In this document: one piece after another, positions 13,643-49,884 of the stretch
How positions within the stretch are numbered: the stretch's first letter is position 1
How the letters are laid out: every line of letters starts with the position of its first letter
DNA from: Actinomycetota bacterium
GTDB taxonomy: Bacteria; Actinomycetota; Actinomycetes; S36-B12; UBA5976
NCBI GenBank assembly: GCA_009698575.1
Contig: WLPX01000004.1
Coordinates: 16,160-80,159 of the forward strand
DNA length: 64,000 nucleotides
Direction of reading: 5' to 3'
Position numbers and translations under genes: made by a program
Notes under the pieces: generated by a model
What the model was told of the DNA's origin: nothing
What the model saw: only the letters and a program-made list of their open reading frames with translations
The model's database searches: none

Positions 13643-13737
13643 TTGGAACCTCCTGGTTAGTCGTAACAAGTTCGCTGCTGCCCTGCTGCAAGCGACAAAC
13701 CCTTGTGTTACGTAGTCGGCGAACCGAACTTATCCTT

Positions 13738-13766
13738 AAATTACACAGGTGTCATTCGTTTGACAA
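13738..13766 (-). promoter_or_regulatory. Putative sigma-A promoter of whiB2 with a GACAC (WhiA-type) motif in the spacer
   Basis: Minus strand TTGTCA (13766-13761), 17-nt spacer containing GACAC (13753-13749), TAATTT (13743-13738). Confidence 0.65.
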
Positions 13767-13934
13767 GTCATATTCGTTTATAAATAAGGGTTTTTTTACC
13801 AAAAACTTACTAAAAGCCCGTATCCAATGGGTTTTGAGCGCAAAAAAATTTTTGTCCCTTTTGCGTGTTTCAAGGCGAAATCGAGTTTCAAAATGCGATT
13901 ACACAACGAGTGTTTACATGCAATGACCTCTGCT

Positions 13935-13955
13935 ACTGCAGAATATTTCTGCAGT
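13935..13955. promoter_or_regulatory. Perfect 9-bp inverted repeat, candidate operator of the dpaL operon
   Basis: actgcagaa-tat-ttctgcagt ending 14 nt before the ATG at 13970. Confidence 0.4.
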
Positions 13956-13969
13956 GAAATACTCAACCC

Positions 13970-15079: not shown

Positions 15080-15087
15080 GAGATCTG

Positions 15088-22942: not shown

Positions 22943-23631
22943 GCTGAAACTTTTCCATCGTTTACCAATGACTTGAGTAGCGAGGAGAAAAAGCCCAGAC
23001 CATCAGTAGTCGGACCGGTCAATGTCTCAACAGCATGTTCTGGGTGCGGCATGATGCCAACCACATTGCCTCGAGAATTAGTAATCCCAGCAATGTCGCG
23101 GCGCGAACCATTTGGGTTGATCTCTAAGTAACGAGCAATTACTCGTCCTTCACCTTCAAGTTCATCCAAAGTCTTTTCATCGGCAACGTATCCACCTTCA
23201 CCATTCTTGAGTGGAATCAGGATTTCGTCACCAACATTAAAGTCAGAGGTCCACGCAGAGGTGTTGTTTTCAATTCGAAGTTTTTGATCTCGACAAATGA
23301 AATGTAAATGATCATTTCGAGTTAACGCTCCAGGCAGCAGATGGGATTCCGTCAAAACTTGGAAGCCGTTACAAATTCCCAAAATTGGCAGGCCACCGTT
23401 TGCCGCATCAACAAGCTTTTCCATAACGGGTGCGAACTTTGCAATCGCTCCGCAACGCAAGTAGTCGCCGTATGAAAATCCACCAGGTAAAACAACAGCA
23501 TCTACGGAATGAAGATCGGCATCAGCGTGCCAAAGCGCAACTGAGTCGGCGCCAGCAATTCGCACAGCACGTGCTGCGTCTTTATCATCAAGAGATCCAG
23601 GGAAGGTGATCACGCCAACCCGTGGAGTCAT
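22939..23631 (-). CDS. purQ: FGAM synthase glutaminase subunit PurQ
   Basis: [27 protein letters not shown]. Confidence 0.98.
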
Positions 23632-23873
23632 CGGCGAACCTGCACAGTGAAATCTTCGATAACTGGGTTACTTAAAAGAGTTGAAGCAATTTCATTTATC
23701 TGAGCGAGCTTGGCATCATCAATTTCGCCGTCGATAGTCAGCACAAACTGCTTGCCTTGTCGCACATCCGCAACGCCAGAAAGGCCAACGCGACCAAGAG
23801 CACTAACAATGGCACGACCTTGTGGGTCAAGAATTTCAGGCTTAAGTGCTACATCAACAACGACAATTGCCAC
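23628..23873 (-). CDS. purS: FGAM synthase subunit PurS
   Basis: [24 protein letters not shown]. Confidence 0.96.
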
Positions 23874-23955: not shown

Positions 23956-24873
23956 CTAATTTTTAACCACTAAAACACCTAAGCGACCTAAGCGCAATCC
24001 ACCGACTTTTGCATTAGGTGTAGCCTCTGTTTTGAGAACAGTCGTTCCTAACTTTTCTAAAAGCATTGAAATCGACTTTAGATTGTAATAATTCAGGTGT
24101 TCCGACTGCTTAACTACCCCACGTTTCGGGATGCTGAATCCAAATTGGCGAGCAATTCCAGAAGCAAAGTCATGTGCAATGAATTTTCGTTTGCTGCTAG
24201 TTGATATTCGACTAAGCATTTCTGCATACTTCTCAGATCCATGATGACTCTTTATAGATGGGCGATCCATTGGAACTTCGACGTATAAGTAGGATCCAGA
24301 ATTCAAATGGGAAATCAAATTAGTGAAAAAATCTATCGGATCATTTACGTGTTCCGCGATGTGGGCTGCCACAATTAGATCAATTTTATCCTTCACAACA
24401 CCAAGGGAAGGTTCGCGAGAAACATTTTTTCGCAATGTCTTATTGGATACATCAATAACGATTCTTTCTTGGATATCTATCTCTGGAAAAAATTGTCCCT
24501 CATCTCCACCAAAGTCGACGACGGTTTTGCATTCCTGCAGCCCTGCAGAAATCAATATATTGGTCATGAATGAAACACGCTCATCTACATGATCAGACTC
24601 ACCAGAATAAGCATCATTTACTGTTCGTCGATACCACGGTTCCCAAGAATTCCGCACTGCATAATAGTTATCGCTGCGATACCCGGAATACATCGCTGCC
24701 ATTTCATTGTCTGAAAATCTTTTTTCAAAGAAACTAAATTCACAATTGTCGCAATTCAACAAAGTTGTGAACTGTGGATCCTTTTGGCCGGATATTTCGG
24801 TGATCCATGGCGCCACTACTGCATTAGCAATTTTTGTAACGCTTGCACCGCATGCGAGGCATTGATTTGCCAT
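23956..24873 (-). CDS. Class I SAM-dependent methyltransferase with N-terminal CxxC/CxxC motif
   Basis: CLAC...CDNC, VVDFGGDEG, HIAEHVNDP, LYVEVP, EHLNYY; ATG at 24873 immediately after the rfbG stop. Confidence 0.75.
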   Translation of the reverse strand: MANQCLACGASVTKIANAVVAPWITEISGQKDPQFTTLLNCDNCEFSFFEKRFSDNEMAAMYSGYRSDNYYAVRNSWEPWYRRTVNDAYSGESDHVDERVSFMTNILISAGLQECKTVVDFGGDEGQFFPEIDIQERIVIDVSNKTLRKNVSREPSLGVVKDKIDLIVAAHIAEHVNDPIDFFTNLISHLNSGSYLYVEVPMDRPSIKSHHGSEKYAEMLSRISTSSKRKFIAHDFASGIARQFGFSIPKRGVVKQSEHLNYYNLKSISMLLEKLGTTVLKTEATPNAKVGGLRLGRLGVLVVKN

Positions 24874-24874
24874 G

Positions 24875-25900
24875 TTAACCACCTTTAATTTCCAAGAAGG
24901 CACTCAATTGTTTTTGAGAAATCCCTAAGGCATGCTCACCAGATAAGAATTGCTTATGCCATCTAACTGTCCACTCAATTGAATCTCTAAACTCAAGCTT
25001 GTTTTTCCATAGCAAATTACTTTTTGCTCTTGTTGCATCCAGTGCTAACAAGCCAGCCTCATGTGGATTTTCCTGCACGTCATGTGACCATACAGATTTA
25101 CTACCCCATAAATCGGCCACAATTGTGGCAACTTCTCCCACGGAAACGAAGCTGTCTTGATCAGGCCCAATGTTAAACGATTCAGGCATTTTCTTGGACA
25201 TCAATAAACGATCACAAATCATTAGGTACCCATTTAGGCAATCAAGTACGTGTTGCCAAGGACGTACGGCTTGCGGGTAGCGCAGTACAGGAGGCATCCC
25301 ATTTACGTACGAATTGATCAGATCCGGTAACAGCCGATCTGGGCTAACGTCGCCACCACCGATTACATTTCCTGCTCTCGCGATTGCCGTGGGTGCGCCT
25401 GGAAATGACGTTATCCATGAATGAGTAGCAATGTCTGCCATTGCTTTTGAGGCACTGTATGGATCATCTCCGCCTAGAGGGTCGTCTTCAACGTAACCAG
25501 CAATCTGATTTACATTTCGGTAAACCTTGTCTGTAGTTATAACCAGGTGAGCCTTAACAGCAGGCGTAGCGGAAACTGATTCCAGAATATTTAGAGTCCC
25601 CATTGCATTGGTCTCAAACGTTGTGCGCGGGTCTTTATATGATTCGCGTACAAGTGGTTGGGCAGCCATGTGGATAACTACATCTGGTGAAGTCGACGTA
25701 ATTGCCTCCTTAACGGCGGAAAAGTCCCGGATATCAACACGCATATCATTGGTAATTAAATCTTTTACACCCGCAACTTCATAAAGGCTGCCAGTGATTG
25801 GGTCAAGTGATATTCCCGAGACGGAATGGCCTTGAGATTGTAGCCAAATTGAAAGCCACGCTCCCTTAAATCCTGTATGACCGGTTATCAAGTAGTGCAT
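24875..25900 (-). CDS. rfbG: CDP-glucose 4,6-dehydratase
   Basis: ITGHTGFKGAWL, HMAAQPLVRESY, TTDKVY, DPYSASK, ARAGNVIGGGD, RPWQHVLD, HEAGLLALD. Confidence 0.95.
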   Translation of the reverse strand: MHYLITGHTGFKGAWLSIWLQSQGHSVSGISLDPITGSLYEVAGVKDLITNDMRVDIRDFSAVKEAITSTSPDVVIHMAAQPLVRESYKDPRTTFETNAMGTLNILESVSATPAVKAHLVITTDKVYRNVNQIAGYVEDDPLGGDDPYSASKAMADIATHSWITSFPGAPTAIARAGNVIGGGDVSPDRLLPDLINSYVNGMPPVLRYPQAVRPWQHVLDCLNGYLMICDRLLMSKKMPESFNIGPDQDSFVSVGEVATIVADLWGSKSVWSHDVQENPHEAGLLALDATRAKSNLLWKNKLEFRDSIEWTVRWHKQFLSGEHALGISQKQLSAFLEIKGG

Positions 25901-25910
25901 TTACAAATGC

Positions 25911-27230
25911 CTATGCGTGCTTATTTACAAACTCGGTGATCGAGTCAGAAATGTAATCCAGCATCGGTTCTGTTAGACCCGGATAAACACCGACCCAGAA
26001 TGTTCGGCGCATAACTATATCGGTGTTCGTTAAGTCACCAACAACGCGAAAATCAACATTTCTATATGCCGGTTGCTTCATAATGTTTCCAGCAAACATT
26101 AATCTCGTACCAATTTTTCGAGAATCCAAGAATCGCAACAATTCCTCTCTATTCACAGGATGTTTTGGATCAAGGGTGATTGGAAAACCAAACCATGATG
26201 GATCAGATTTTGGAGTGGCTTTTGGCATGATCAAGCCTTGAACGCCCTTTAGCTTCTTGGAGAGATACTTGAAATTCTTTTTACGAGCATCGCTGAAGGA
26301 ATCTAGTTTGGTGAGCTGTGAAAGACCTAGTGCCGCCTGCATGTCAGTAGCTTTTAGGTTGTAGCCGATGTGGCTGTAAATATACTTGTGGTCGTAACCT
26401 TCTGGCAGATCACCAAGCGTCCAACCAAAACGCTTATTACACGTGTCATCGTGACCAGTTTCGCAGTAGCAATCACGTCCCCAATCTCGGAAAGATTCAA
26501 CTTGTTTCTTGACTAACGGGGACTTAACAAATACCGCTCCACCCTCACCTGTTGTTATATGATGTGCTGGATAAAAACTAGCTGTTGCAGTGTCACCGAA
26601 GCTTCCAGTTTTTTGACCATCATATGTAGATCCAAGTGCGTCGCAAGAGTCTTCAATCAACCAAAGATTGTGTTCATCACACAACTCTTGCACGGTGTCC
26701 AAATCAAACGGGTTGCCTAAGGTGTGTGCCATCATGATCGCGCGAGTTTTTGGACCTACAGCTTCTCGCAATCGATCCGATTTTGCGTCATAGGTTTCTA
26801 ATTCAACGTCAACAACTACGGGCCTTAATCCATTTTGAATTATCGGATTTACTGTGGTTGGAAATCCCATGGCTACCGTCAAGACTTCGTCACCAGGCTT
26901 TAGTGCCTTTTTCCCGAGTTTTGGACTTGTCAACCCTGAAAGCGCAACAAGATTTGCACTTGAGCCACTGTTTACAAAAAGGGCACTTCGTGAACCTACG
27001 TATTTTGCAAGTTTTCTTTCAAACTCGGCAGTGAACCTACCTGCAGTAAGCCAGCCATCTAGGGATGAATCAACCAGTGCTACTAGATCGTCCGGATCGA
27101 GCACCTTCCCAGATACTGGAACGACTGACTCTCCAGGCTTGAATTCTGATTTTTCAAGGTTTTTTTCAGCAAATGCTCTTGCGGCATCCAGCGCGACTTT
27201 TCTTAATGTTTCCAACTCGCTTTTTGCCAC
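25911..27230 (-). CDS. rfbH: CDP-4-keto-6-deoxy-D-glucose 3-dehydrase (E1, PMP/[2Fe-2S])
   Basis: [32 protein letters not shown] (His in place of the PLP Lys), WGRDCYC..DDTC cluster motif, YDHKY. Confidence 0.95.
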
Positions 27231-27353
27231 AAATTCTCCAAGTTTAAATATATTTAATTTTCATATTCTATCCCAACTGTTGCCAATTCGTTCTTAATCA
27301 TCAGATAAACGAAAGAGGGGTATCCTGTAACAACGCCGAATATTGGAGGAAAT

Positions 27354-28127
27354 GTGAAGGCTGTTTTACTTGCAGGCGGTCTTGGTACGCGTTTGCGCGA
27401 AGAAACCGAATTCAAGCCAAAACCTATGGTTGAAGTTGGTGGAAGACCAATAATTTGGCACATTATGAAGAACATAGCTATGCACAATATCGGAGAGTTT
27501 GTTGTTGCTACTGGATATAAGAGTGAAGTTATTAAGGACTATTTTCTAGACTATGAAGCAAGAAATAACGATTTCACGGTTTCACTCGGTGAAAAGCATG
27601 CAATTGAATTCCATGATGCCCACGATGAAGGCGACTGGAGAGTAACTCTCGCATTTACCGGTGAGTTAACTATGACCGGCGGACGCGTTAAGCGAATTGA
27701 AAAATACCTTGGTGGAGAAAGATTCCTCTGCACTTATGGAGACGGCCTAGCAGACGTAGATATTTCTGCCTTACTCGATTTCCATAAATCCCACGGAAAA
27801 CTAGCCACCGTAACTACCGTTCAACCTTCAAGTCGATTTGGAATCATGGATGTGAACTCAGGGGGTGAAGTTAAGAGCTTCAAAGAAAAGCCAAAGTTAG
27901 ACGGTTGGATAAACATTGGCTTCTTCATCTTTGAGCCTGAAGTATTAAGTTACCTAGACACAGAATGCGTGCTTGAACAGGAACCACTTGCAAAACTAGC
28001 CAAGGATGGCCAACTTATGGCATTTCGTCATGAGGGTTTCTGGCAACCAATGGATACGTATCGTGAATCAACGATGTTGAATGAGATGTGGAATGACGGA
28101 AGTGCTCCTTGGAAGACATGGAGTTAA
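27354..28127 (+). CDS. rfbF: Glucose-1-phosphate cytidylyltransferase
   Basis: LAGGLGTRLREET..KPKPMVEVG, TMTGGR, TYGDG, FWQPMDTYRE, APWKTW. Confidence 0.95.
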   Translation: MKAVLLAGGLGTRLREETEFKPKPMVEVGGRPIIWHIMKNIAMHNIGEFVVATGYKSEVIKDYFLDYEARNNDFTVSLGEKHAIEFHDAHDEGDWRVTLAFTGELTMTGGRVKRIEKYLGGERFLCTYGDGLADVDISALLDFHKSHGKLATVTTVQPSSRFGIMDVNSGGEVKSFKEKPKLDGWINIGFFIFEPEVLSYLDTECVLEQEPLAKLAKDGQLMAFRHEGFWQPMDTYRESTMLNEMWNDGSAPWKTWS

Positions 28128-28133
28128 AAAGTA

Positions 28134-29066
28134 ATGTCAAAAAAACTAATCAGCGTGATCATTCCTGCCTACAACGAAACAGAATGCATTGAAGAGCTTC
28201 ATTCGCGTCTTGCGAATATTTTTGATGTAGAAACTGACTACGACTTTGAAGCGGTGATCGTGGAAAATGGCTCGAGCGATGACACCTACGAGAAACTACT
28301 TGTAATTAACCAAAAGGATTCTAGATTCAAAATCCTAAAGCTGGCTAGAAACTTTCGAATGGATGGCGGCCTAACTGCTGGACTAAGTGTTATCGATAGC
28401 GATGCCTGTATTTTGATGACTGCTGACCTACAAGATCCCCCAGAACAAATTCCAGCCCTAATCAGGAAATGGGAAGAGGGATTTGAAAACATATACGGCA
28501 TTGTCACTGAGCGCCAGGGCACTGGGCCAATTAGAACATTCAATTCGAAGGCTTTTTATTGGGTCGCGGGGAAATTGACCGATAATCGAATTCCGAAGAA
28601 CGCAAGTGACTTTCGACTTCTTGACCGCAAAGTGTATGAAGCGGTTCGAGACATGGACGAGCGAAATCGTTTTGTACGCGGACTTGTTGCTTGGGTTGGA
28701 TTCACATCTGTTGGCGTGGAGATCGCTCGTCCGCCAAGATTCGCCGGCGAATCTAAGGCCTATTCATTCCAAGTTATTGACTTAGCATTCAAGGGCATTT
28801 TTGCGCATTCATACAAACCGTTAAGAATCATCACTGTGACAGGAATATTGGTCAGTGTGCTTTCGGTAATTGGATTCATCGCATTGGCATCGCGCTGGTT
28901 CTTAGTTGGCGTTCCATTCGGTGGCTATGGAACTCTCACAACAATTGCTCTTTTTTCTTTCGGGCTACTGACCTTTATGTTAGGAATCATTGCTGAATAT
29001 CTTGGCTTGATTTATGAGGAAGTTAAGAAGAGGCCAAACTACGTCGTTGACCGTTGGTTGTCTTAA
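28134..29066 (+). CDS. GT2 polyprenyl-phosphate glycosyltransferase (GtrB/ArnC-like)
   Basis: IPAYNE, NGSSDDT, RNF, TADLQDPPE, DFRLLDR, RFVRGLVAWVGF, two C-terminal TM helices, EEVKKRPNY. Confidence 0.88.
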   Translation: MSKKLISVIIPAYNETECIEELHSRLANIFDVETDYDFEAVIVENGSSDDTYEKLLVINQKDSRFKILKLARNFRMDGGLTAGLSVIDSDACILMTADLQDPPEQIPALIRKWEEGFENIYGIVTERQGTGPIRTFNSKAFYWVAGKLTDNRIPKNASDFRLLDRKVYEAVRDMDERNRFVRGLVAWVGFTSVGVEIARPPRFAGESKAYSFQVIDLAFKGIFAHSYKPLRIITVTGILVSVLSVIGFIALASRWFLVGVPFGGYGTLTTIALFSFGLLTFMLGIIAEYLGLIYEEVKKRPNYVVDRWLS

Positions 29067-29746
29067 TGAATCGGGTAGCGGTTTTTGGTAGTTCCGGCGC
29101 ATTGGGATCGACGATATCAAATGACTTTGAAAACTTGGGGTTTGATTCCGTTCGATTAACTAGTAGTTCTTCAAAAGAGAATCTTGTTTCTACTTTGGAT
29201 GAGAATTGGGTCGAAGTTCTTACTAAGCCCGGAAAACTCGATGCGGCCGTTTGGGCTCAAGGATTTAATCAGTCTGACAACATAAGTGAGTTTTCGATAG
29301 ATGTCTTTAATAAGCACCTTGATGCGAATGTTTCTTACATTCTTGACACTGTGCACAAACTTATTGCAGCCGATGCCTTTACAAACAGAGCCCGCATCGT
29401 AATTTTGAGTTCAATATGGCAAGAGTCATCGAAAGCGAACAAGCTTAGCTACATGGTTTCTAAGTCTGCTCTCAAAGGGCTAGTAACCAGTCTCTGCCTT
29501 GACTTGGGACATAAAGGCATAAGTGTCAATGCGGTATTGCCTGGTGTCACTGATTCGCCAATGACCCATCGCAACTTATCTTCAGAGCAAATTGCTCACG
29601 TGGTTGACGAGACACCCTTGAATATCCTGCCTCGAATCGAAGAAGTCTCAAAGACGGTTACGTGGTTAGCGTCTACAGACTCAAGCGGTATCAATGGACA
29701 ATTCATCACAGTTGATAACGGTTGGACTCGATACCGAAATGTTTGA
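29066..29746 (+). CDS. Classical SDR oxidoreductase
   Basis: GSSGALG, LSSIW, YMVSK, NAVLPG, INGQFITVDNG; TAATG overlap with the upstream gene. Confidence 0.88.
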   Translation: MNRVAVFGSSGALGSTISNDFENLGFDSVRLTSSSSKENLVSTLDENWVEVLTKPGKLDAAVWAQGFNQSDNISEFSIDVFNKHLDANVSYILDTVHKLIAADAFTNRARIVILSSIWQESSKANKLSYMVSKSALKGLVTSLCLDLGHKGISVNAVLPGVTDSPMTHRNLSSEQIAHVVDETPLNILPRIEEVSKTVTWLASTDSSGINGQFITVDNGWTRYRNV

Positions 29747-30797
29747 AATTCCGGTATCGAGCAAGTTGGGTTCGTACACAATAAATATAAATAGCAGCAT
29801 CGATCCGATTACTGTACCTGGCATCGCGATCGTGGATTCGAATACTAGATCGCACTTAGTTGCTCAAGACTCAGCAAAGCTCATCATCATTGAAGCGTCG
29901 GAGGAAGTTAAAACCCTGCCTTCGTGCGAATCCGTAATTATCAAACTTAATGATTTGGGGCTGAAGCGAAGCGATTCGATCAGCGCAATCGGTGGTGGCA
30001 CAACTCAAGATCTGGCAACACTGACTGCCAGCCTTTACATGCGCGGTGTCTCATGGACCTACTATCCAACAACACTGATGTCTATGACTGACTCATGCAT
30101 CGGCGGCAAATCAGCAATCAATGCTGGCGATCGAAAGAATCTGATTGGAAACTTCTACCCACCTAATGAAATCCAAATCAACACGAGATTCCTGGAAACA
30201 AACTCAAACATAGATATTGTTAATGGGTTGTCTGAGGCAGTAAAGATTTGCTTTGCTCGAGGTGCGAACGCGTTTGAAAAGTACATCGCCTTGCCCTCAT
30301 CTCTAAAGCCAGGCAACGATAAGAACACAGCCGAATTGATTAATCACACGTTGAGCACGAAAAAGTGGTTTGTCGAAATTGATGAATTTGATTTAAAGGA
30401 ACGACAACTACTTAACTTTGGGCATTCTTTTGCTCATGCACTCGAGTCAGCGACTAATTATTCAATTCCGCATGGAACAGCCGTAGGAATCGGCATGATT
30501 GCGGCACTACGTCATCCAGAATCAAGCAGTTCTGGCAGGTCCAAGGTGTTGATTGACTATTCATTAAAGATGCTCGACCTAACTAAGGAATCTATATCAG
30601 ACGGCATGAAGCATTTTGATGACACAAAATTCGTTACTGCTCTTGATCGAGATAAAAAAAATTCCCAAGAATACTTACGTTTAGTTTTACTCAACAGAAA
30701 TGATGAGTTGGAACTAATCTCGTTAGAGCGAAATGATTACCAACTTCAAATAGCACTTTCATCCTTAAAAGAAGCAATTAGTGAGGTCCTGCTGTGA
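29739..30797 (+). CDS. 3-dehydroquinate synthase-like / sugar-phosphate cyclase family protein
   Basis: IGGGTTQD, PTTLMSMTDSCIGGK, KNLIGNFYPP, SEAVK, LNFGHSFAHALE, HGTAV metal ligands. Confidence 0.85.
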   Translation: MFEIPVSSKLGSYTININSSIDPITVPGIAIVDSNTRSHLVAQDSAKLIIIEASEEVKTLPSCESVIIKLNDLGLKRSDSISAIGGGTTQDLATLTASLYMRGVSWTYYPTTLMSMTDSCIGGKSAINAGDRKNLIGNFYPPNEIQINTRFLETNSNIDIVNGLSEAVKICFARGANAFEKYIALPSSLKPGNDKNTAELINHTLSTKKWFVEIDEFDLKERQLLNFGHSFAHALESATNYSIPHGTAVGIGMIAALRHPESSSSGRSKVLIDYSLKMLDLTKESISDGMKHFDDTKFVTALDRDKKNSQEYLRLVLLNRNDELELISLERNDYQLQIALSSLKEAISEVLL

Positions 30798-32560
30798 AAT
30801 ATTCAGATCAATTAGTTCAATGGCTTAAAAGCGAAGGTTTCACTCACTGCTTTTTTGTAGCAGGTGGAAACATTATGCACTTGCTCAACTCCGTTCGTAA
30901 TGAAATGACATGCATACCCTTTGTTAATGAAGTTGGTGCAGCAATCGCAGTTGAGTCCTTTAATGAGACTTCAAATTCTAAGAATGAAAAAGCGTTCGTG
31001 CTTGTCACTGCTGGACCTGGATTAACTAATGCAATTACTGGAATATCAGGAGCATGGCTAGAAAGTCGGGAACTCCTTGTAATTGGTGGCCAGGTCAAAA
31101 GTTCAGACCTGAAGGAAAAAGAAATGCGACAACGAGGAATTCAAGAAATTGACGGAGTTGAACTTGTTTCCACAATTACTAAGGATGCAATTCGAATAAC
31201 TAAACCAATTTCACGGGAACTATTCTTGTCCACGGTAAAAAAGGGAAGCACTGGCAGGAAGGGTCCTGTGTTCATTGAAATCTGTCTCGATGCCCAAGCC
31301 AATCCACCTCTGGATGAGGTCTCACCTAATCAAGAAGAGAACTCAACCTCTAAGGCCGCGCAGATCTTGGATGACAAGACCTTGGACTTGATAAAGAACT
31401 CAAAGCGCCCAGTTTTACTCATCGGTGGAGGCGTGGGATTTGATTTTGCCCAGAACCACTCAGAAGACTTTAAAAATCTGGGAATTCCACTCATGACGAC
31501 CTGGAATGGTGCGGATCGAATTTCATCAATTAACCCTCTTTATTTTGGTCGTCCAAACACATGGGGTCAGCGCTCTGCCAACATTCTGATTCAGCAGTCA
31601 GATCTGGTCCTCGCAGTAGGTACCAGACTAGGTCTGCAGCAAACTGGATTTGCCTGGGAAGAATTTGTTCCAAACGGAAAAGTAATACAGATAGACATAG
31701 ATAAAAGCGAACTCGATAAAGGTCACCCAACAATTGAGCATGGAATAAACGTCGATGCAACAGAATTTCTAAAGGCTCTGTTTACAAGCGCAAATGACTT
31801 AGAGCTTGATTTCTCAACTTGGAAAGAATTTTGCAACGAAGTTAAAGGTGCGCTGCCACTTACTGATCCAGAAAACATAACTAGACCTGGATTCGTTGAT
31901 CCATATCTTTTCGGAATGGCAATCTCTGGAGTTGCAAATCCTGATGCCGTTATCGTGCCTTGTAGCAGTGGTAGTTCTTTCACAGTGTTGATGCAAACAC
32001 TCAGCCAATCAGGCTCCCAGCGAATAATCTCCAGCAAAGGTTTGGCAAGCATGGGGTATGGACTCAGTACCGCCATAGGTAGTGCATTCGCAAATCCTGG
32101 GAAACAGATCTTCTTGGTTGAAGGCGATGGCGGATTTGCCCAAAACCTCCAAGAGCTCGGTACCGTTGCAGCAAATAACCTGCCGATCAAAATCTTCATT
32201 TGGGCCAATAATGGCTATGCCTCAATTCGCATGACCCAAAGAAACTATTTTGACGGGGCTTGGGTCGGTTGCGATTCAGAAACAGGGCTTGGACTACCAG
32301 ATTTGGAATTGCTAGCAAAGACCTACGGGATTTCCTACCTTCGCATGACAGAAAACATTTTTAACGAACAGGGCATTGTCAATATATTGGCTGCGCCTGG
32401 GCCTGCAATCATAGAAGTTCCAATTGATCCAGAGCAAACATTTTATCCAAAAATCACTTCATCGGTTCAGCCTGACGGGTCTATGAAATCTAATCCATTA
32501 CACTTAATGAATCCGGAGTTGTCGAAAAAAATCGCAAAGCAAGTCTTTAAATACCTCTAG
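30794..32560 (+). CDS. Thiamine diphosphate-dependent enzyme (acetolactate synthase-like, YerE-type)
   Basis: NEVGAAIA (catalytic Glu), VTAGPGLTN, GRKGPVFIEI, LASMGYGL, EGDGG...NNGYASIR ThDP motif. Confidence 0.9.
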   Translation: MKYSDQLVQWLKSEGFTHCFFVAGGNIMHLLNSVRNEMTCIPFVNEVGAAIAVESFNETSNSKNEKAFVLVTAGPGLTNAITGISGAWLESRELLVIGGQVKSSDLKEKEMRQRGIQEIDGVELVSTITKDAIRITKPISRELFLSTVKKGSTGRKGPVFIEICLDAQANPPLDEVSPNQEENSTSKAAQILDDKTLDLIKNSKRPVLLIGGGVGFDFAQNHSEDFKNLGIPLMTTWNGADRISSINPLYFGRPNTWGQRSANILIQQSDLVLAVGTRLGLQQTGFAWEEFVPNGKVIQIDIDKSELDKGHPTIEHGINVDATEFLKALFTSANDLELDFSTWKEFCNEVKGALPLTDPENITRPGFVDPYLFGMAISGVANPDAVIVPCSSGSSFTVLMQTLSQSGSQRIISSKGLASMGYGLSTAIGSAFANPGKQIFLVEGDGGFAQNLQELGTVAANNLPIKIFIWANNGYASIRMTQRNYFDGAWVGCDSETGLGLPDLELLAKTYGISYLRMTENIFNEQGIVNILAAPGPAIIEVPIDPEQTFYPKITSSVQPDGSMKSNPLHLMNPELSKKIAKQVFKYL

Positions 32561-32575
32561 AAAACGGAGTACGAC

Positions 32576-33373
32576 ATGAATAAAACCGAACGCAAGATGT
32601 CAGAAATTCTTAAGCGCGGAAAAAATGAATTTGGTGTCGTTAGCATCAAGGCAGAATTTGAGGCTGAAGGTACTCGCGTAGATGAACTATTGCGTTTGGT
32701 TGATATTGCAAGATCAGCTGATTTGCCTATGACGGTAAAAATTGGTGGCTGTGAAGCTGTTCGAGATTTGCTTGAATCGAAGCAGATCGGCGTTAGATAT
32801 GTAGTAGCACCAATGGTTGAGACTCCGTACGCGCTGAGCAAATACATTCTTGCCAAGAACATGGTTTTCAATGAGGACGAATTAGAAGACAGCGACTTTT
32901 TATTTAATTTGGAAACAATAACTGGCTTTAACAACTTGGATGAACTAGTCACAGTTGCTCGCTCAGAAGGCGGAGTTCAAGGTGTGGTCTTTGGGCGCGT
33001 AGATTTCGCTGGTTCACTGGGTGAAAACCGAGACACAATCAATGAAGCAAAGATTACTGAATACGTTGCCAAGGCATCTGCTGCTGCCAAGGACGCATCG
33101 CTTGATTTCGTCATGGGTGGCGCGATTTCAAGTGACTCATTGCATGTGATTAAAGAAATCGCCGGAATTCACCTAACTAGGTTTGAAACCCGCAAAGTTG
33201 TTTTTAGTGGTGAAGCCGGAACTATCAAGAATATCGAACAAGGTCTGGTTAATGCCGTACACTTTGAATTACTGTGGCTTTTGAACAAGCGGGATTACTA
33301 CGGTCGCATCACCCAAGAAGATGCAAAGAGAATCGATATGCTTGAAGCTCGTTGGAATGTCCTCAGTAGCTGA
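32576..33373 (+). CDS. HpcH/HpaI aldolase / citrate lyase beta-like protein
   Basis: [40 protein letters not shown]. Confidence 0.75.
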
Positions 33374-34337
33374 AAACTCGAGACTTTTAGAGAATTTTCT
33401 TAAGCAGGCTCTGCCCAGCAACGTTCGCATCTTAGTTAATGGTGCGAACGGCTGGTTAGGTAAGAATATTTCCGAATCACTTTGGAATATGTTCGGTGGG
33501 GAATTTAGTTCACAAGTTTTGCTAACCGGCTCTAAGAATGGAATTCTGCAGTTGCAGAATGGTTCCGAGTTAGAGATCAATCGGTGGACCGAAGAACTTA
33601 TAGAGGAATTCAAACCAACCCATGTGATTCAGTTAGCGTTTAAGACACGTGACCATGTGGGTGAAATCTCCAATGACGAGTACGTCTCTCTAAACGAAGA
33701 AATCATTAACCGCGCCCTATGGACAATTTCGCTACCAAGCACGCAAGGATTTCTTCACACTTCCAGTGGAGCAGCACTTGGTGAAACTGCTTTTGACAAA
33801 CATATTGACCCATACGGATATCTCAAGAAATTCGAAGAATCCAGTTACTCAAGTGCTTGCAAGGATAACGGCAAACGTTATCTAGGTTTGCGGGTTTGGT
33901 CTACTACGGGTCGATACATCAAGTCAGGTGGCCTCTTTGCGATTGAAAGTCTAATCAGTCAGGCAATGTCTTCAGAAAACTTAAGCATTAATAGTCAAGG
34001 AGAAGTTTGGCGCAGCTATGCAGACGCCAATGAGATTCTGCTTGCTGGACTTATCGCACTTTTCACTGGTGAAACGGGTTTGTACAATTCCGGAGGAACT
34101 GACACAGAAATCGGTGAGCTGGCTGATCTTGTCTCCTCTTTGACACCCAGTCGCACGCCTGCAATAAATCGGATCAAAGATAGCGCAGCTACCGCAAGTA
34201 TTTATACCTCTATCGAACCCTCTATCGAACAGGTTCTGGCTTTACATGACTTGCGATATTCGGATTTACGGGCTCAGGTAATTAATACAATGCAATACTT
34301 GACATGGCTACATAGTCAATCAAATCCTCAGGACTAA
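33357..34337 (+). CDS. NAD-dependent epimerase/dehydratase/reductase (extended SDR)
   Basis: [20 protein letters not shown]; start at ATG 33357 is uncertain (track gives 33321). Confidence 0.75.
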
Positions 34338-34346
34338 GGGAGATAA

Positions 34347-34739
34347 GTGAAGCTTCTTAGAGCCGCTCCCCTCCAAGTCAGATACACAATTGTCGGACTC
34401 TGGAATACATTCGTGGGATTTGGACTGTTTACCATGTTTATCTACGTGCTACCTGTTTCGAGATATCTACTTGCCCTTATGTTGGCTACTGTCTTTGCAG
34501 GAATGAATGCTTACCTCACCCAAAGAATATACGTGTGGCAAAGCAGTGCAACGATTAAAAAGGAAGCGAGTAAGTTTTTCACAGTCTACATTACTCAATC
34601 TGTGGCAAATGTAATTTTGCTTTACTTGCTTGTTAACTACTTGAATTTAAATCCGCTCTGGACACAGTATGTAATCGCGACAGTGCTTATCGTCCTTACT
34701 TACCTCTCACACAAGTACTGGACATTTAAAGTTAGTTAG
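34347..34739 (+). CDS. GtrA-family flippase
   Basis: RYTIVGLWNT, four TM helices, NAYLTQRIYVW, TYLSHKYWTF. Confidence 0.88.
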   Translation: MKLLRAAPLQVRYTIVGLWNTFVGFGLFTMFIYVLPVSRYLLALMLATVFAGMNAYLTQRIYVWQSSATIKKEASKFFTVYITQSVANVILLYLLVNYLNLNPLWTQYVIATVLIVLTYLSHKYWTFKVS

Positions 34740-35479: not shown

Positions 35480-35890
35480 TTATTTTGTTGATAAGAATGA
35501 TTTCAATTGCTCGGCACAGGTATCCGAAGGGCTATCTCCCCGATTAACCGCGACTTGCCAATCAACGGTCCACTTCAAAGATTCCTTGAAGCTCAACTTG
35601 TTGTGCCAATTAAGTTCTAGTTCAGCTTTGCGGGCATCTAGTGCCAATAGGTTTGCCACATCGCGAACATATACAAACGAGCTGGTTTCAGGGCAAAAGT
35701 TCCATTCGCCTTGCCCGTTGCCTTTAAGTAACGAGACAGATAGCTTCAAATAGCGATTCAGGCAGTCGAGGACGTGTTGCTACAGCCTAGCCGCTCCTGG
35801 GGGAAGCGCAGAACAGGAGCCTGGACAGGAAGGTAGGCATTTAGCAGGTTTGGGGAAGGCAATCTTTGCTGACATCACCGCCGCCCGTTA
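35480..35890 (-). pseudogene. Decayed 3' half of a second CDP-glucose 4,6-dehydratase (rfbG) gene
   Basis: GGGDVSKD / PNLLNAY..APVLRFPQ / *QHVLDCLNRYL / WNF.PETSSFVYV / LLALDA..WHNKLSFKESLKWTVDW align with intact RfbG; frameshifts, a TGG>TAG change at 35780-35782 and an internal deletion. Confidence 0.85.
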
Positions 35891-37625: not shown

Positions 37626-38207
37626 TTAACCTGAATATAAATGGTTAAAATCAAACTGAGATAGCTGCTCCGAAATCTCAAGTAGTAACGGCGCCACAGC
37701 ATCTTTAGTAGATAGCAGCGGGGTGATGCCGTTGGGCCAACTAATTCCAATTTCTGGATCCAACGGATTGATTTCTCTCTCATTGGATGGGTCGTAACGC
37801 TGATCGCACAAATAAACAACGGTTGAGTTATCTTCAAGGGCCATAAATGCGTGTCCAACACCATTAGGTATTGACATGGCCTTATGGTTTTCAGCGTTTA
37901 GGATTTCACCGTGCCACTTTCCGAAAGTTGGCGAACCGTTTCTTAAATCGACAATCACATCAAAAATTTCCCCAGTAAAGCAGCTTACGTACTTGCGCTG
38001 CCCCGGAGGATCATCGGCAAAATGAATTCCTCTCAAAGTGCCCTTGCTTGAAATTGAACAATTTGCCTGCGCAAGTGTGAAGCTATGTCCAGCCGCTTCC
38101 ACAAATGTTGAATCTTGAAACCACTCGAAAAATGTTCCGCGATCATCGGAGAATTGCTTTGGCGTGAAAACCCAGGTACCAGGTATATCTAATTGCGTGA
38201 CTGTCAT
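37626..38207 (-). CDS. rmlC: dTDP-4-dehydrorhamnose 3,5-epimerase
   Basis: DDRGTFFEWF, QANCSISSKGTLRGIH, VDLRNGSPTFGKW, GHAF, LSTKD. Confidence 0.95.
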   Translation of the reverse strand: MTVTQLDIPGTWVFTPKQFSDDRGTFFEWFQDSTFVEAAGHSFTLAQANCSISSKGTLRGIHFADDPPGQRKYVSCFTGEIFDVIVDLRNGSPTFGKWHGEILNAENHKAMSIPNGVGHAFMALEDNSTVVYLCDQRYDPSNEREINPLDPEIGISWPNGITPLLSTKDAVAPLLLEISEQLSQFDFNHLYSG

Positions 38208-38268
38208 TCTGCAACTTTACCTTTGTATTTCTTGGGCAGGTGTATTTGAGCAATGATAGCGTCGGGTT

Positions 38269-39345
38269 GTGAAACATTCCGTATCAATAATCCTTCCTTT
38301 TTATAACTCTGAAGAAACTCTTGGTGAGACGCTTCAATCGGTATTTGAAGAAATCACTAGGTCTCCGCAATTTAGTTGGGAGCTTATTGCGTTAGATGAC
38401 GGTTCATCGGATCGATCGGTTGCAATCGTTGAATCCTGGGTCTCAAAAATTTCTATCAATCTTCAAAAGTTGGACCATACGGGTACACCCGCAACTGCTA
38501 GAAATTTTGGTATTGATCTTTGCGAATCAGAATTTATGTTTTTTCTTGATGCTGATGACATATTGCTTCCGGGAGGACTGAGCTGCGCAATTCAATACGC
38601 AATAGACAATGAGTCAGACGTAGTCTTGCCACGATTAAAAAGCATCGGTGGTCGAGGAGTTCCTCGTGGAATGTATAAAAAATCAAATCCAGATGTGAAT
38701 TTTCTTAAGTCCCGAGTTTATTGGGCAATGAATCCGATGAAAGTTTTTAGAACCGCCTTTGTAAAAGCTAGCGGAATTAAATTTGATACTAGTTTGCGCA
38801 AAGATTCAGATCAGCCTTTTTCTTTGCGCGCGTATATTGCAGCTGAGAAGATTTCTGTCCTTGCGAATCCTCCTGTTGTTGGATACCGCTACACACCTTC
38901 GGGAAGCAACCTGACGTTGCGACCTTACCTTCCCACCTTTTGCTACGACTATTTAAATGTGATGATGAAAATTCTTGACGAGAGCGGTATCGATCAGGAA
39001 CACCTCTTCCCACTATTAATACGAAATTGGGAAATAGAAGTTGCTAGGGAATTCATTTGGAAGCGATTAGGAAAGCTGTCGGAAACTGAATGGTTGCCGG
39101 CATTGGAGTGGCTGCATCAATTCAGTAAAGATCGCTTAATTTCAAGCATGTTACCTGACACTTCGATTCGCTGGCGCGGCATCGTAGGCATGATTGGTGT
39201 TGCCAATTTCGCGGATTTGCAAAAGTTGCTAAAAGGGCGGCGACTTGTTCTCGAGAATTCCTCAAAGTCAAATAAGCTAGCGGGAATTGTATTGTCGAAC
39301 TGGATTCGGCTAAAGGCAACTATGTTCCTGCCAAAATCCCTTTAG
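38269..39345 (+). CDS. GT2 glycosyltransferase (TarS-like)
   Basis: ILPFYN, DDGSSD, TPATARNFG, FLDADD, GGRGVP, KDSDQPF. Confidence 0.82.
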   Translation: MKHSVSIILPFYNSEETLGETLQSVFEEITRSPQFSWELIALDDGSSDRSVAIVESWVSKISINLQKLDHTGTPATARNFGIDLCESEFMFFLDADDILLPGGLSCAIQYAIDNESDVVLPRLKSIGGRGVPRGMYKKSNPDVNFLKSRVYWAMNPMKVFRTAFVKASGIKFDTSLRKDSDQPFSLRAYIAAEKISVLANPPVVGYRYTPSGSNLTLRPYLPTFCYDYLNVMMKILDESGIDQEHLFPLLIRNWEIEVAREFIWKRLGKLSETEWLPALEWLHQFSKDRLISSMLPDTSIRWRGIVGMIGVANFADLQKLLKGRRLVLENSSKSNKLAGIVLSNWIRLKATMFLPKSL

Positions 39346-39348
39346 AAA

Positions 39349-40557
39349 CTAATGGTCGAGAGCGACCATTATCGCTTCACGGGTATTTACCCCAGGCAAT
39401 GCGCCTATCTGTTGAACTATTTCGTTTATGTAGTGCACGCGAGATTCCATCATCGAATCAGATATGACTGCATTGGTGACTTGTACTTCTAGTTCATTAA
39501 TTTCACGCACTATATAGGCAATTTCCAGCTGCTTTTCATCTTCAATTGCCGGGCACATTAATTGATAGTTTTCGTAATCAATTAATACTGAAACAGTGGG
39601 TATTCCTAGCATCAAAGAGTCATGTGCAATCCCACTGAAATCTGTTACAACTGCGCTGTAGTTTCGAAGACTATTAGTACTTACTGTGCTGGAGTTGGGC
39701 TTTATGCCTGTTGCCTGCTTAATTTTTCCGTGAAGTTTTGGTTTAGCGCCAGGATGCAGAGCGATGTCAACTTCCCAATTATTTCGGTTAGCGATAACTA
39801 CCAATTTGGCTATCCAGGCTGTAAGTGCAATTTCTCCAGTCTTTGATTCTGAATAAGTGGGGGCGACTAAAATCTTTTTCTGTATCGGTGGACTCCAAGA
39901 TCCATTGCTTAGTTCATCAACGAGGCGATATTCGACATCATAAAGGGATTGCTTAGCGAGGATACTTCTTGTTCGTCGGTATTCAGCTTGGTTCGGCTCG
40001 TTAACTAATGCATCGAAACCAACGCTGCTTGTTGCGACCGCGGTGAAGTGCCAGAAGGACTTCGCTGTATCTAGGCGCTCCAACCCAAATACTTTGCCAA
40101 CTGGCCCGGTGGCGCCATGCCAAAGTTGGATTTTATATGAGCCCTCGAGCAATGACCTTTGCAGAAGTTGATCGTTAGTGCGCCACCAATTATGAGTGTC
40201 ATAAACACTAACTTTGGCACGAATCAGTTTGTCCCAAAGTTCTGCAGAACTAGGTACTGATTTGGAGTTAAAAACTGCCGATTGCAGTCCCTGCGATTTG
40301 GCCCAATCCAAACCTTCTTTGTCGTGTGCAAGAAATAGCAACTCATCCTCGTCAAGGACCTTGTTCAAATCCAAGGCTATTGCGCGTGCATTTCCATACG
40401 CTAAATCTGAATCAACAATTACAACTCGTCGATCTTTCGGAATCGTATTCGAGGCTTCCGCGAGCAATCTAGCTTCATCTGGATTTCTTGAAGACCGCAT
40501 AAATCGGTCGAAAACGACCATCTGAATTTTTCGAAACTCTTTACTCAGCGATCCCAT
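39349..40557 (-). CDS. CDP-glycerol/ribitol glycerophosphotransferase family protein (TagB/TagF-like)
   Basis: IQLWHG, ILVAPTY, LHP, VTDFSGIAHD..MLGIP motifs. Confidence 0.68.
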   Translation of the reverse strand: MGSLSKEFRKIQMVVFDRFMRSSRNPDEARLLAEASNTIPKDRRVVIVDSDLAYGNARAIALDLNKVLDEDELLFLAHDKEGLDWAKSQGLQSAVFNSKSVPSSAELWDKLIRAKVSVYDTHNWWRTNDQLLQRSLLEGSYKIQLWHGATGPVGKVFGLERLDTAKSFWHFTAVATSSVGFDALVNEPNQAEYRRTRSILAKQSLYDVEYRLVDELSNGSWSPPIQKKILVAPTYSESKTGEIALTAWIAKLVVIANRNNWEVDIALHPGAKPKLHGKIKQATGIKPNSSTVSTNSLRNYSAVVTDFSGIAHDSLMLGIPTVSVLIDYENYQLMCPAIEDEKQLEIAYIVREINELEVQVTNAVISDSMMESRVHYINEIVQQIGALPGVNTREAIMVALDH

Positions 40558-40626
40558 GTCCTAAGTCAATCACGGGAGCCTTGATTCACGCGATTTTGCA
40601 ATCTGGATTCCTTTGAATTAGTGAAA

Positions 40627-41700
40627 TTAGAGATTTGCCAGAGCAGCCTGGACCAGTAATTTGGCTCGTTGGTCAAATGAGTGTTCAATTCCAACTTGGC
40701 GCGCTCTTGCAGTGATTTCATCCTGTGTCCCCCAAGAACCCCTATTTGCGGGCAAACATAGTTTTGCAAGATTACTTGCATCCGTATAAACAGCAACCGA
40801 GTTACCAAATACTTCATCGATTCCAACTGCATAATCGCTAATCACTCGGCCTCCGGAGGATACGGCATCAAATAATCTATTGGACAGAAATCCATGTTTA
40901 GCCATGTCAGGCCAGTGGTCATTTAAAACGACTCCAGCAGAACGATACATGCCAGGCAATTTATCATTTTGGACAAAAGATCCTTTGATCAAATCGTTGG
41001 AAACAAATCGATCCCAACCTTTACCGTAGATTAAAGGATTTACCCCAGAGTCAACGCAGTCCTTTATGATCTTGCGATATACATTTCTAGTATTACCAAC
41101 AAACAAAATCTCATCACCGGTATCTGGTTGACTAACGTCGGGATGAAACTTCTCGGGGTTTGTTGCTTGCAGCAAAGCTCTAATTTCTACTCCCGAGCTT
41201 CTTGTCTTGTCTATAGCCCATGCGTTACTTGCCGCAAACACCAAATCAAAAGACTTGAATTCGTTTTGAGAAATTCGATCTGGATGTGAAATAACCCAAA
41301 GAATATTCAGCGCATTAGCCTGCGGCCGAATACGCTCAATGCCGCGCAAAACTAGAACTACGTCGTCATCTGCTGAGTCAGCATGGATAACATCGCTTCG
41401 AAAATCAACTCGCGCGGTATGACCGAGCTTTTTCAAAGATGCTGCGACTTCATTTGCAAAATAAAGATCTCCCCAGCCTTTGCCAGAAATTCCAGCTGGC
41501 ACCGAAGTCTTGATTGCCCATCGTAGATTGTTTGGGTCTCTAATTCGTTTTCTATTTGCAACGGCAGCATTTAGTCGCTTACGGGCTAAACGAGCTTGTG
41601 ACATACTCGTCTGAAGTTGTGCTGCCTCCATTCGAAGCTGAAGATACGCATAAGCCCCAGGCATGCCCCAGCCAATTCGAAATACCCAATCAGGAAGCAC
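40627..41700 (-). CDS. GT-B glycosyltransferase (CgeB/Glyco_trans_1_2-like)
   Basis: WAIK...WGDLYFA, LWVISHPD, LFVGNTR, VLNDHWPDM, SNRLFDAV; start uncertain (GTG 41700 or up to 41739). Confidence 0.78.
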   Translation of the reverse strand: MLPDWVFRIGWGMPGAYAYLQLRMEAAQLQTSMSQARLARKRLNAAVANRKRIRDPNNLRWAIKTSVPAGISGKGWGDLYFANEVAASLKKLGHTARVDFRSDVIHADSADDDVVLVLRGIERIRPQANALNILWVISHPDRISQNEFKSFDLVFAASNAWAIDKTRSSGVEIRALLQATNPEKFHPDVSQPDTGDEILFVGNTRNVYRKIIKDCVDSGVNPLIYGKGWDRFVSNDLIKGSFVQNDKLPGMYRSAGVVLNDHWPDMAKHGFLSNRLFDAVSSGGRVISDYAVGIDEVFGNSVAVYTDASNLAKLCLPANRGSWGTQDEITARARQVGIEHSFDQRAKLLVQAALANL

Positions 41701-42547
41701 TGAAGGCCCCTGCTTCGAAGGCATCGGAAAGTGCATCATCCCAGTTTCGGATCGGCTTCATCCCGACTAACGCCCACTTGTCGTGAGAAAGAACTGAATA
41801 GGCAGGCCTTGGTGCTGGGCGCACGAAAGCATCTGAAGTTGTAGGAAGCACCCGATTTGGATCAGCACCAATTTCCTTAAAAATTCTCTTAGCGAATTCA
41901 AACCAACTAGTTTGGCCCGATGCTGTTGCGTGATAGATGCCTGCTGGAACATTTAATTCAATCATCTTCAAAACTTGCTCGACTAGGTCAGCTGTCCAAG
42001 TTGGCTGTCCCAACTGATCATCGACAACGGAAACAGTGGCTTTTGATTTCTCTAGAGACTGCATTGTCTTTACAAAATTTGGTCCATGTTCTCCGTATAG
42101 CCAGGCAGTTCGAACTATGAAATGTGACTCTGGAAGTTCCGCTTTGACCGCAATTTCGCCAGCAAGTTTGGTTCTGCCGTATGCAGACTTCGGTCCGGTC
42201 GAATCATCCACTTGGTAAGGCTGGTCAGCATTCCCGGAAAAAACGTAATCAGTAGAAATTTGCACCATACGTGCTCCAATTTCACTACAAATAATCGCGA
42301 CATTTTTTGGACCTACTCCATTTATCGCGTGAGCAGTTTCCTCATTTTCTTCGGCTTCATCTACTGCGGTCCACGCCGCGCAATTAACAACCACATCAAA
42401 ATCCACAAGAATCTTTCGAACAGAATTCAGGTTCGTGATATCAAACTCATCTCGATCAAAACCTTCAGCATTCGGAAGGGCCTTAATAAAGTCCTGCCCC
42501 AGCATTCCTGCAGAACCAAGAATCGCCCACTTCAAATTTGAACTCAC
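41690..42547 (-). CDS. rmlD: dTDP-4-dehydrorhamnose reductase
   Basis: GSAGMLG, NCAAWTAVD, ISTDYVF, YGRTK, VDDQLGQPT, APRPAYS. Confidence 0.96.
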   Translation of the reverse strand: MSSNLKWAILGSAGMLGQDFIKALPNAEGFDRDEFDITNLNSVRKILVDFDVVVNCAAWTAVDEAEENEETAHAINGVGPKNVAIICSEIGARMVQISTDYVFSGNADQPYQVDDSTGPKSAYGRTKLAGEIAVKAELPESHFIVRTAWLYGEHGPNFVKTMQSLEKSKATVSVVDDQLGQPTWTADLVEQVLKMIELNVPAGIYHATASGQTSWFEFAKRIFKEIGADPNRVLPTTSDAFVRPAPRPAYSVLSHDKWALVGMKPIRNWDDALSDAFEAGAFSAS

Positions 42548-43525: not shown

Positions 43526-43583
43526 CAGCTTTGCCCTTCCTAGGTTTTCCTAGTCTATCCGAGCCTCCGATAGACTTTCATTT

Positions 43584-44444: not shown

Positions 44445-44447
44445 CTC

Positions 44448-46790: not shown

Positions 46791-46791
46791 G

Positions 46792-48714: not shown

Positions 48715-49884
<1,170 letters not shown>

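Follow-up and report, generated by a model that had tools for sequence, protein, structure and literature searches.

The window analysed here is a stretch of 64,000 nucleotides from the genome of an Actinomycetota bacterium (contig WLPX01000004.1 of assembly GCA_009698575.1), within which a preliminary description had singled out positions 23956-34337 as a candidate pathway for an undescribed C4-branched or carbocyclic higher-carbon CDP-sugar. Open reading frames (ORFs) and profile searches with Pfam and NCBIfam place eleven genes there (Table 1): a minus-strand group comprising a methyltransferase gene, rfbG and rfbH, divergent from a tightly coupled plus-strand operon that consists of rfbF, a GT2 glycosyltransferase gene, and genes for a classical short-chain dehydrogenase/reductase (SDR), a dehydroquinate synthase (DHQS)-like protein, a thiamine diphosphate (ThDP)-dependent carboligase, an aldolase-like protein, an extended SDR and GtrA. 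The gene set, the divergent arrangement and the overlapping junctions first reported are thus borne out, by the ORFs, the profile matches and the likely start codons. The last gene, gtrA, lies just beyond the end of the original interval (34337), and the locus functionally reaches further still, to a decayed rfbG and a gene for a DUF2142 membrane protein. We think it likely that this locus makes and exports a sugar of caryophyllose type, in which C4 of a 3,6-dideoxyhexose bears a long polyhydroxyalkyl chain, caryophyllose itself being a branched C12 sugar of the cell surface; the locus resembles the caryophyllose locus of Mycobacterium marinum both in layout and protein by protein.

The genes are closely packed. 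Likely starts are ATG codons at 24873 for the methyltransferase, where it is preceded by the ribosome-binding site AAAGGTGG, at 29066 for the classical SDR, at 29739 for the DHQS-like protein and at 33357 for the extended SDR. With these starts the GT2 and SDR genes share one nucleotide (TAATG), the SDR and DHQS-like genes overlap by 8 nt, the DHQS-like and ThDP genes share four nucleotides (GTGA), and the aldolase-like and extended SDR genes overlap by 17 nt, an arrangement in which the plus-strand genes would be translationally coupled. Scanning the rfbH-rfbF intergenic region for promoter and terminator consensus sequences gave weak matches only, fewer than in shuffled sequence. The left flank of the locus is purS-purQ-purL-purF. 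Distant phyla have this block too, with its gene order unchanged, and the arrangement is not the product of chance.

Table 1. Features of the locus: window coordinates, strand, basis of assignment and, where a counterpart was compared, amino acid identity to the M. marinum protein.
Feature	Position	Strand	Basis	M. marinum counterpart
SAM-dependent methyltransferase, about 305 aa	23956..24873	-	Pfam Methyltransf_23, 52.6 bits	
rfbG, CDP-glucose 4,6-dehydratase	24875..25900	-	TIGR02622, 389 bits (cut-off 278)	MMAR_2336, 60%
rfbH (E1), CDP-4-keto-6-deoxyglucose 3-dehydrase	25911..27230	-	NF011936, 706 bits (cut-off 423)	MMAR_2335, 76%
Divergent rfbH/rfbF intergenic region, presumed promoter-bearing	27231..27353	.	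Position	
rfbF, glucose-1-phosphate cytidylyltransferase	27354..28127	+	TIGR02623, 342 bits (cut-off 300)	MMAR_2334, 65%
GT2, GtrB/ArnC/PgfS type	28134..29066	+	Pfam Glycos_transf_2; PgfS 221 bits and ArnC 130 bits, both below cut-off	MMAR_2333, 67%
Classical SDR ketoreductase, 226 aa	29066..29746	+	adh_short_C2, 107 bits	MMAR_2330, 25%
DHQS-fold paralogue, 352 aa	29739..30797	+	DHQ_synthase and DHQS_C domains	MMAR_2329, 33%
YerE-like ThDP carboligase, 588 aa	30794..32560	+	Three TPP domains (Pfam)	MMAR_2332, 58% over 590 aa, full length, E = 0
Class II (HpcH/HpaI-fold) pyruvate aldolase-like enzyme, 265 aa	32576..33373	+	Pfam HpcH_HpaI, 31 bits (weak)	MMAR_2331, 72%
Extended SDR, about 326 aa	33357..34337	+	Pfam Epimerase, 34.7 bits (weak)	
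GtrA-family small membrane protein	34347..34739	+	Pfam GtrA_DPMS_TM, 64 bits	
Decayed C-terminal rfbG remnant	about 35483..35885	-	tblastn, 35-42% identical to RfbG and MMAR_2336	
DUF2142 multi-pass membrane protein, 511 aa	35959..37494	-	Pfam DUF2142, 61 bits	

The M. marinum locus was reached through a homologue search with the ThDP protein of a Gordonia and an exact-protein look-up, and was compared with the window protein by protein. The names of its genes MMAR_2327-2336 come from an expression table in the supplement of PMC12395582, in which MMAR_2327 is a GT87 protein, MMAR_2335 is RfbH and MMAR_2336 is CDP-glucose 4,6-dehydratase. This lipooligosaccharide (LOS) locus, MMAR_2327-MMAR_2337, has in common with the window the divergent rfbH-rfbG / rfbF-GT2 layout, an overlapping pair of SDR and DHQS-family genes, a gtrA gene, and a large membrane protein resembling GT-C; its own order is gtrA-rfbG-rfbH divergent from rfbF-GT2. 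The two loci differ in the order of the tailoring block, which is ThDP-aldolase-SDR-DHQS-FGGY in M. marinum and SDR-DHQS-ThDP-aldolase-extended SDR in the window; in the FGGY-like gene, which the window lacks, and the extended SDR, which is not found near the M. marinum locus; in the GT-C protein, GT87 there and DUF2142 here; in their methyltransferases; and in the predicted acceptor, a trehalose lipooligosaccharide in M. marinum and a wall polymer in the window. The FGGY-like gene encodes an FGGY_N-only, kinase-like protein and overlaps the end of the DHQS-like gene in mycobacterial loci (MMAR_2328, at 14668-15945 of locus L094, and 13546-14823 of locus L095); it has a weak match to xylulokinase (58 bits against a cut-off of 380) and is absent from cassettes of the window type.

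M. marinum mutants in MMAR_2331 (the aldolase), MMAR_2332 (the YerE-like ThDP enzyme) and MMAR_2333 (the GT2 protein) lose caryophyllose, and MMAR_2332 takes hydroxylated keto acids as substrates (PMC9306805, PMC5706390). Judged by the protein comparisons, the window locus is a homologue of the caryophyllose locus and its pathway type is one already known. Because of this homology and the shared layout the pathway cannot be called undescribed, as it was at first: the type was set out in 2022 (PMC9306805), and the M. marinum locus has the same parts, the DHQS-family gene included. The proposal of a higher-carbon CDP-sugar branched at C4, its chain exceeding the C2 unit of yersiniose, fares better, being supported by the match of the ThDP enzyme and the aldolase-like protein to MMAR_2332 and MMAR_2331.

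The published route to acyl-branched sugars runs from an aldolase, which makes a hydroxylated 2-keto acid, to a YerE-like ThDP enzyme, which adds it to CDP-4-keto-3,6-dideoxyglucose, and then to a reductase (PMC9306805, Steitz et al. 2022). The logic of this unifying scheme, which takes in yersiniose (YerE/YerF), erwiniose (ErwE/F/I/J) and gastriose (MyGE), is common to the window, and some of its clusters also have an S-adenosylmethionine (SAM)-dependent methyltransferase. No DHQS-like enzyme figures in the scheme, which leaves open the origin of the 4-deoxy C4 aldehyde; the erwiniose cluster has an aldolase and dehydrogenase of BphI/BphJ type, with no DHQS-like gene listed. The novelty that remains in the window is the role of the DHQS-fold/SDR pair.

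The genes for the nucleotide-sugar core are readily assigned, RfbF, RfbG and RfbH each scoring above its own equivalog cut-off in NCBIfam. The ThDP enzyme carries the GDG...NN ThDP motif and scores far below the cut-offs of all models for acetolactate synthase (ALS), the best giving 257 bits against a cut-off of 738. Entries 8rph (295 bits) and 5ahk (216 bits) head its PDB matches, ahead of ALS (at most 171 bits); we take these two to be PpYerE and JanthE. A 2025 review gives PpYerE and JanthE as the solved YerE-like structures. By its model scores and PDB ranking the enzyme is YerE-like and not ALS, and a housekeeping ALS is ruled out. Phosphonate biosynthesis was considered and rejected: no signature of phosphoenolpyruvate mutase is present, and the ThDP enzyme is of full length and resembles ALS.

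The aldolase-like protein gave no PDB match when searched as a single sequence, and as a profile matched only YfaU, at E = 0.6. A structure model (AF2) built on 49 homologues, with a pLDDT of 97.3, has as its top Foldseek matches the class II pyruvate aldolases HpcH/HpaI/YfaU (TM 0.61, E 9e-9). E113 and D143 align with the metal ligands of YfaU; both are invariant in seven close homologues and are conserved at 90% or more in the 49-member alignment of diverse family members. The HpcH/HpaI fold is confirmed at the level of this predicted structure. The family is of modest size, at 250 clusters with E ≤ 1e-30 among 1.84 billion representatives.

The DHQS-like protein reaches 274 bits with TIGR04425 (cut-off 400) and 231 bits with the aroB model TIGR01357 (cut-off 305). 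The housekeeping AroB is a separate and better-scoring copy on contig C29, which groups in the tree with an actinobacterial AroB. In the maximum-likelihood tree the cassette-linked DHQS-like proteins form one clade (97/98), to which MMAR_2329 is sister (95/94), on a long branch, and both lie apart from 27 AroBs. None of the 13 columns of the DHQS active site, the binders of zinc, phosphate, carboxylate and hydroxyl groups, varies within the set made up of the cassette clade, MMAR_2329 and 59 AroBs, and this holds under any numbering; in Aspergillus nidulans numbering these are, on our own mapping, presumably R130, D146, K152, N162, E194, K197, K250, R264, N268, H271, H275, H287 and K356. Four derived residues, Q105, W121, C135 and S140, are common to the cassette clade and MMAR_2329 and rare in AroBs. 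In view of this full conservation of the active site the enzyme very probably binds a 3-deoxyheptulosonate 7-phosphate similar to the AroB substrate 3-deoxy-D-arabino-heptulosonate (DAH) 7-phosphate (DAHP).

Two other assignments were rejected. A housekeeping AroB is ruled out by the score below the aroB cut-off, the separate clade and the separate AroB elsewhere in the genome; a sedoheptulose-7-phosphate cyclase is set aside by retention of the carboxylate-binding K and R, with the DOIS and ValA models scoring lower than DHQS. The possibility raised at the outset, that the ThDP and DHQS-like enzymes serve only housekeeping acetolactate and dehydroquinate synthesis, falls on both sides, the one being YerE-like and the other accompanied by a distinct AroB. 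The paralogue has the fold and domains of AroB and of the sugar phosphate cyclases (DOIS, EEVS); it differs from AroB in lying in a sugar operon, in its own clade with derived residues, and in the activity proposed below, an elimination without ring closure.

Its partner, the classical SDR, has the motifs GSSGALG and YMVSK and FabG-like PDB matches. The gene immediately preceding the DHQS-like gene is that of the SDR in 12 of the 13 informative loci, and across phyla these two and the ThDP gene stand side by side with overlapping ends. Both SDRs of the locus retain a glycine-rich and a YxxxK motif, which in the extended SDR read GANGWLG and PYGYLK. This second protein, which matches the UDP-glucose 4-epimerase 4zrm weakly, is found in cassettes of the window type at 27-83% identity and is absent from the M. 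marinum locus. It is a candidate for a YerF-like reductase acting on the 1'-keto group of the branch. The methyltransferase has an N-terminal CxxC...CxxC zinc ribbon, no PDB match by sequence search, and only 19% identity to the Methyltransf_23 gene product of another cassette; it is probably an accessory tailoring enzyme that O-methylates the sugar or its branch.

For export, the GT2 protein has two C-terminal transmembrane (TM) helices, at 232-250 and 268-286, as in polyprenyl-phosphate glycosyltransferases, and is predicted to be a polyprenyl-phosphate:CDP-sugar glycosyltransferase. GtrA is the putative flippase of the polyprenyl-phosphate-linked sugar; gtrA genes also occur at the M. marinum, M. 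rhodesiae and M. malmoense loci. The DUF2142 protein, with about 10 hydrophobic segments, is a candidate GT-C-type transferase for adding the sugar on the outer side of the membrane, and related loci have GT87 or other large membrane proteins in its place. A two-TM GT2, a GtrA and a multi-pass protein beside wall-polymer genes recall the GtrA/GtrB/GT-C systems (phage Gtr, ArnC/ArnT, Streptococcus Pgf, lactococcal Csd), but the donor in the window, instead of UDP-glucose, would be a branched C12 sugar bound to CDP, and the GT-C member is assigned by position. Next to the DUF2142 gene, at 37626-50708, lies a wall-polysaccharide locus with rmlC, a GT2 gene, a TagF-like glycerophosphotransferase gene, a GT1-like gene, rmlD, rmlB, rmlA, an RgpF-like gene, an ABC-2 exporter pair, another GT2 gene and the gene for UDP-galactopyranose mutase (Glf). 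On family resemblance and position, the polymer made there is probably the acceptor of the branched sugar.

These assignments can be assembled into a route that most likely ends in a CDP-activated 3,6-dideoxyhexose carrying a long polyhydroxyalkyl chain on C4, with methylation as a further possibility. Orthology supports three of its steps: CDP-4-keto-3,6-dideoxy-D-glucose would be supplied by RfbF, RfbG and RfbH, the part of E3 (AscD/RfbI) being taken by an unlinked reductase; the HpcH-fold aldolase, as the MMAR_2331 orthologue, would join pyruvate to an aldehyde to give a hydroxylated 2-keto acid; and the YerE-like ThDP enzyme, as the MMAR_2332 orthologue, would decarboxylate the keto acid and couple it to the C4 ketone. 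We propose that the aldehyde is erythrose 4-phosphate, in which case the aldolase product would be the DAHP-like 3-deoxyheptulosonate 7-phosphate. On this acid the DHQS-fold paralogue would perform the NAD-dependent oxidation and phosphate elimination, and the coupled SDR would reduce the resulting ketone to give 3,7-dideoxyheptulosonate, a methyl-ended 2-keto acid for the ThDP enzyme; a variant in which the elimination comes late, after coupling, could also operate. The side chain of caryophyllose, 1,3,4,5-tetrahydroxyhexyl with a methyl end, is the skeleton of a decarboxylated 3,7-dideoxyheptulosonate, and from the published configuration we derive it to be the C4 epimer of 7-deoxy-DAH. The extended SDR would then reduce the 1'-ketone, as YerF does, and the methyltransferase would decorate the product; the GtrB-like GT2 would load the sugar on polyprenyl phosphate, GtrA would flip it, and the GT-C protein, here DUF2142, would attach it to the wall glycopolymer of the neighbouring rhamnose, galactofuranose and ABC-transporter genes.

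If the DHQS-fold/SDR pair does convert a DAHP-like acid to the 3,7-dideoxy keto acid, it would provide the source of the methyl-ended side chain that is missing from the published scheme, and would add a non-cyclising activity to the classic DHQS fold.

Several points weigh against this interpretation. The organism is known here from its genes alone. No E3 gene is found in the 64-kb window, and the sole FAD_binding_6 match in the genome sits on another contig; an E3 gene was likewise not seen within 10 kb of the M. marinum locus. Identity to the M. marinum pair is only 25% for the SDR and 33% for the DHQS-like protein, against 58-76% for the others, and this divergence, with the long branch of MMAR_2329, means that the chemistry of the side chain may not be the same as in M. 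marinum. In the mycobacterial loci the extended SDR is missing and the unexplained FGGY-like gene is present, and the Paceibacterota locus is without the classical SDR. The intact DHQS active site would argue equally for ordinary cyclisation. The post-elimination intermediate of DHQS cyclises spontaneously in solution, which makes interception by the SDR an assumption. As to export, the DUF2142 protein is linked to the pathway by position only, and in an M. marinum mmpL12 mutant LOS-II and LOS-III, which carry caryophyllose, build up in the cell-associated fraction (PMC12507525), a phenotype which does not obviously favour addition of the sugar outside the membrane.

The DHQS-like protein and its SDR could instead stand outside the branched-sugar route, as a spare shikimate or quinate enzyme or in the synthesis of some other surface component, the branch then deriving from the aldolase product alone and ending in a hydroxyl. 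M. malmoense, which keeps the ThDP and aldolase genes without the SDR or DHQS-like gene, would suit such a division, and among the papers of the library searched none assigns a role to MMAR_2329. We nonetheless regard it as unlikely: the SDR, DHQS-like and ThDP genes overlap and are found together in at least four phyla, even where there are no sugar genes near; the genome has its own AroB; and the aldolase and ThDP steps by themselves leave the methyl end of caryophyllose unexplained.

The carbocyclic alternative of the preliminary description would make the DHQS-like protein a true cyclase, and the sugar or a substituent on it the bearer of a dehydroquinate-like six-membered carbocycle, as in caryose or bradyrhizose. 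The full DHQS catalytic set is kept, and the NCBIfam model that fits best bears the name of a cyclizing phospholyase. Against this, acyclic caryophyllose is what the homologous locus of M. marinum yields (PMC9306805, PMC5706390), and MMAR_2329 falls with the window type in one clade with shared derived residues; moreover, a dehydroquinate-type product is not a 2-keto acid, so that the ThDP enzyme, whose gene comes next and overlaps, could not take it as a donor. A ring is improbable on these grounds and survives as a slim chance for this sub-type, since at only 33% identity to MMAR_2329 the chemistry of M. marinum need not transfer. Should that slim chance be realised, with a dehydroquinate-derived carbocycle closed on or in a CDP-activated surface sugar, carbocyclic units of bacterial glycans would have their first biosynthetic route. 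It is very improbable that the end product is plain abequose, paratose, tyvelose or C2-branched yersiniose, canonical though rfbF, rfbG and rfbH are and usable though pyruvate is by YerE-type enzymes (PMC9306805), since the genes are accounted for without assigning any reductase of the abequose/paratose synthase type, the caryophyllose pair has close orthologues in the ThDP enzyme and the aldolase, and four extra conserved enzymes would be left idle.

The cassette is not confined to the window. Examination of the context of DHQS-like homologues showed the block (rfbF)-GT2-SDR-DHQS-like-ThDP-aldolase-like-extended SDR-GtrA to be conserved, even where the DHQS-like protein has diverged to 47% identity, and often joined by rfbG and/or rfbH, a Methyltransf_23 gene, and a gene for GT87 or another large membrane protein. 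Local tblastn over the loci compared found the cassette in metagenome-assembled genomes (MAGs) of Actinomycetota, in a Gordonia MAG, in a Paceibacterota genome, and in Pseudolabrys, Sulfurirhabdus and Acidobacteriaceae. A scan of genome contigs with the DHQS-like alignment returned mostly ordinary AroBs among the matches listed; M. marinum was not among the matches listed. Very few bacteria in culture are known to have sugars of caryophyllose type (M. marinum, Burkholderia caryophylli, Rhodopseudomonas palustris); given that the genes occur in abundant, uncultured Actinomycetota with small genomes, in a Paceibacterota genome, in Proteobacteria and in Acidobacteria, 12-carbon branched sugars may be a common surface decoration.

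Two mycobacteria have half of the cassette. Mycolicibacterium rhodesiae JS60 (L095) has the ThDP, SDR, DHQS-like and FGGY genes and no aldolase gene within 10 kb, while M. malmoense (L096) has the ThDP enzyme and an aldolase 93% identical to MMAR_2331, and no SDR, DHQS-like or FGGY gene. Such halves fit a separable precursor-tailoring module whose substrate would possibly come from primary metabolism; they predict different side chains and make the two strains a natural comparison. In an uncultured Terriglobus (L015, 9295-12843) the SDR-DHQS-like-ThDP trio lies beside a HAD hydrolase gene, among two-component signalling genes, with no nucleotide-sugar genes within 10 kb.

The genome that holds the window comprises 1.70 Mb in 30 contigs, and hundreds of metagenomic proteins are at least 92% identical to its PurL. 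The cassette is a strain-variable island, the DHQS-like gene being present in only two of the 25 genomes of the genus. In the other member that has it (G021:C160:1299-2399, locus L090) the DHQS-like gene is 88% identical and has an internal TAA stop; this cassette may be decaying, or the stop may be a sequencing error.

Contig L007, of the closest relative, is collinear with the window from rfbH to gtrA, at 83% nucleotide identity. The rfbG remnant at 35532-35885 is 85% identical in nucleotides to the intact rfbG found at the same position on L007, and the working rfbG at 24875..25900 is only 66% identical to that L007 gene in nucleotides and 62% in amino acids; from this difference the island has been remodelled. 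The identities indicate that the working rfbG is a replacement copy: the old rfbG has decayed, and a new rfbG-methyltransferase pair has replaced the GT87 genes at the purS side. A strain-variable island with a fossil rfbG amounts to cassette turnover, the pattern expected for surface structures under pressure from phages or grazers. The cassette lies beside purS-purQ-purL in the window (23628-23873), and it does so too in a 91% relative (L007) and on a contig with a 47%-identical DHQS-like gene (JGI 3300059473), which suggests that the flank of the pur operon is a conserved insertion hotspot for glycan islands in this lineage.

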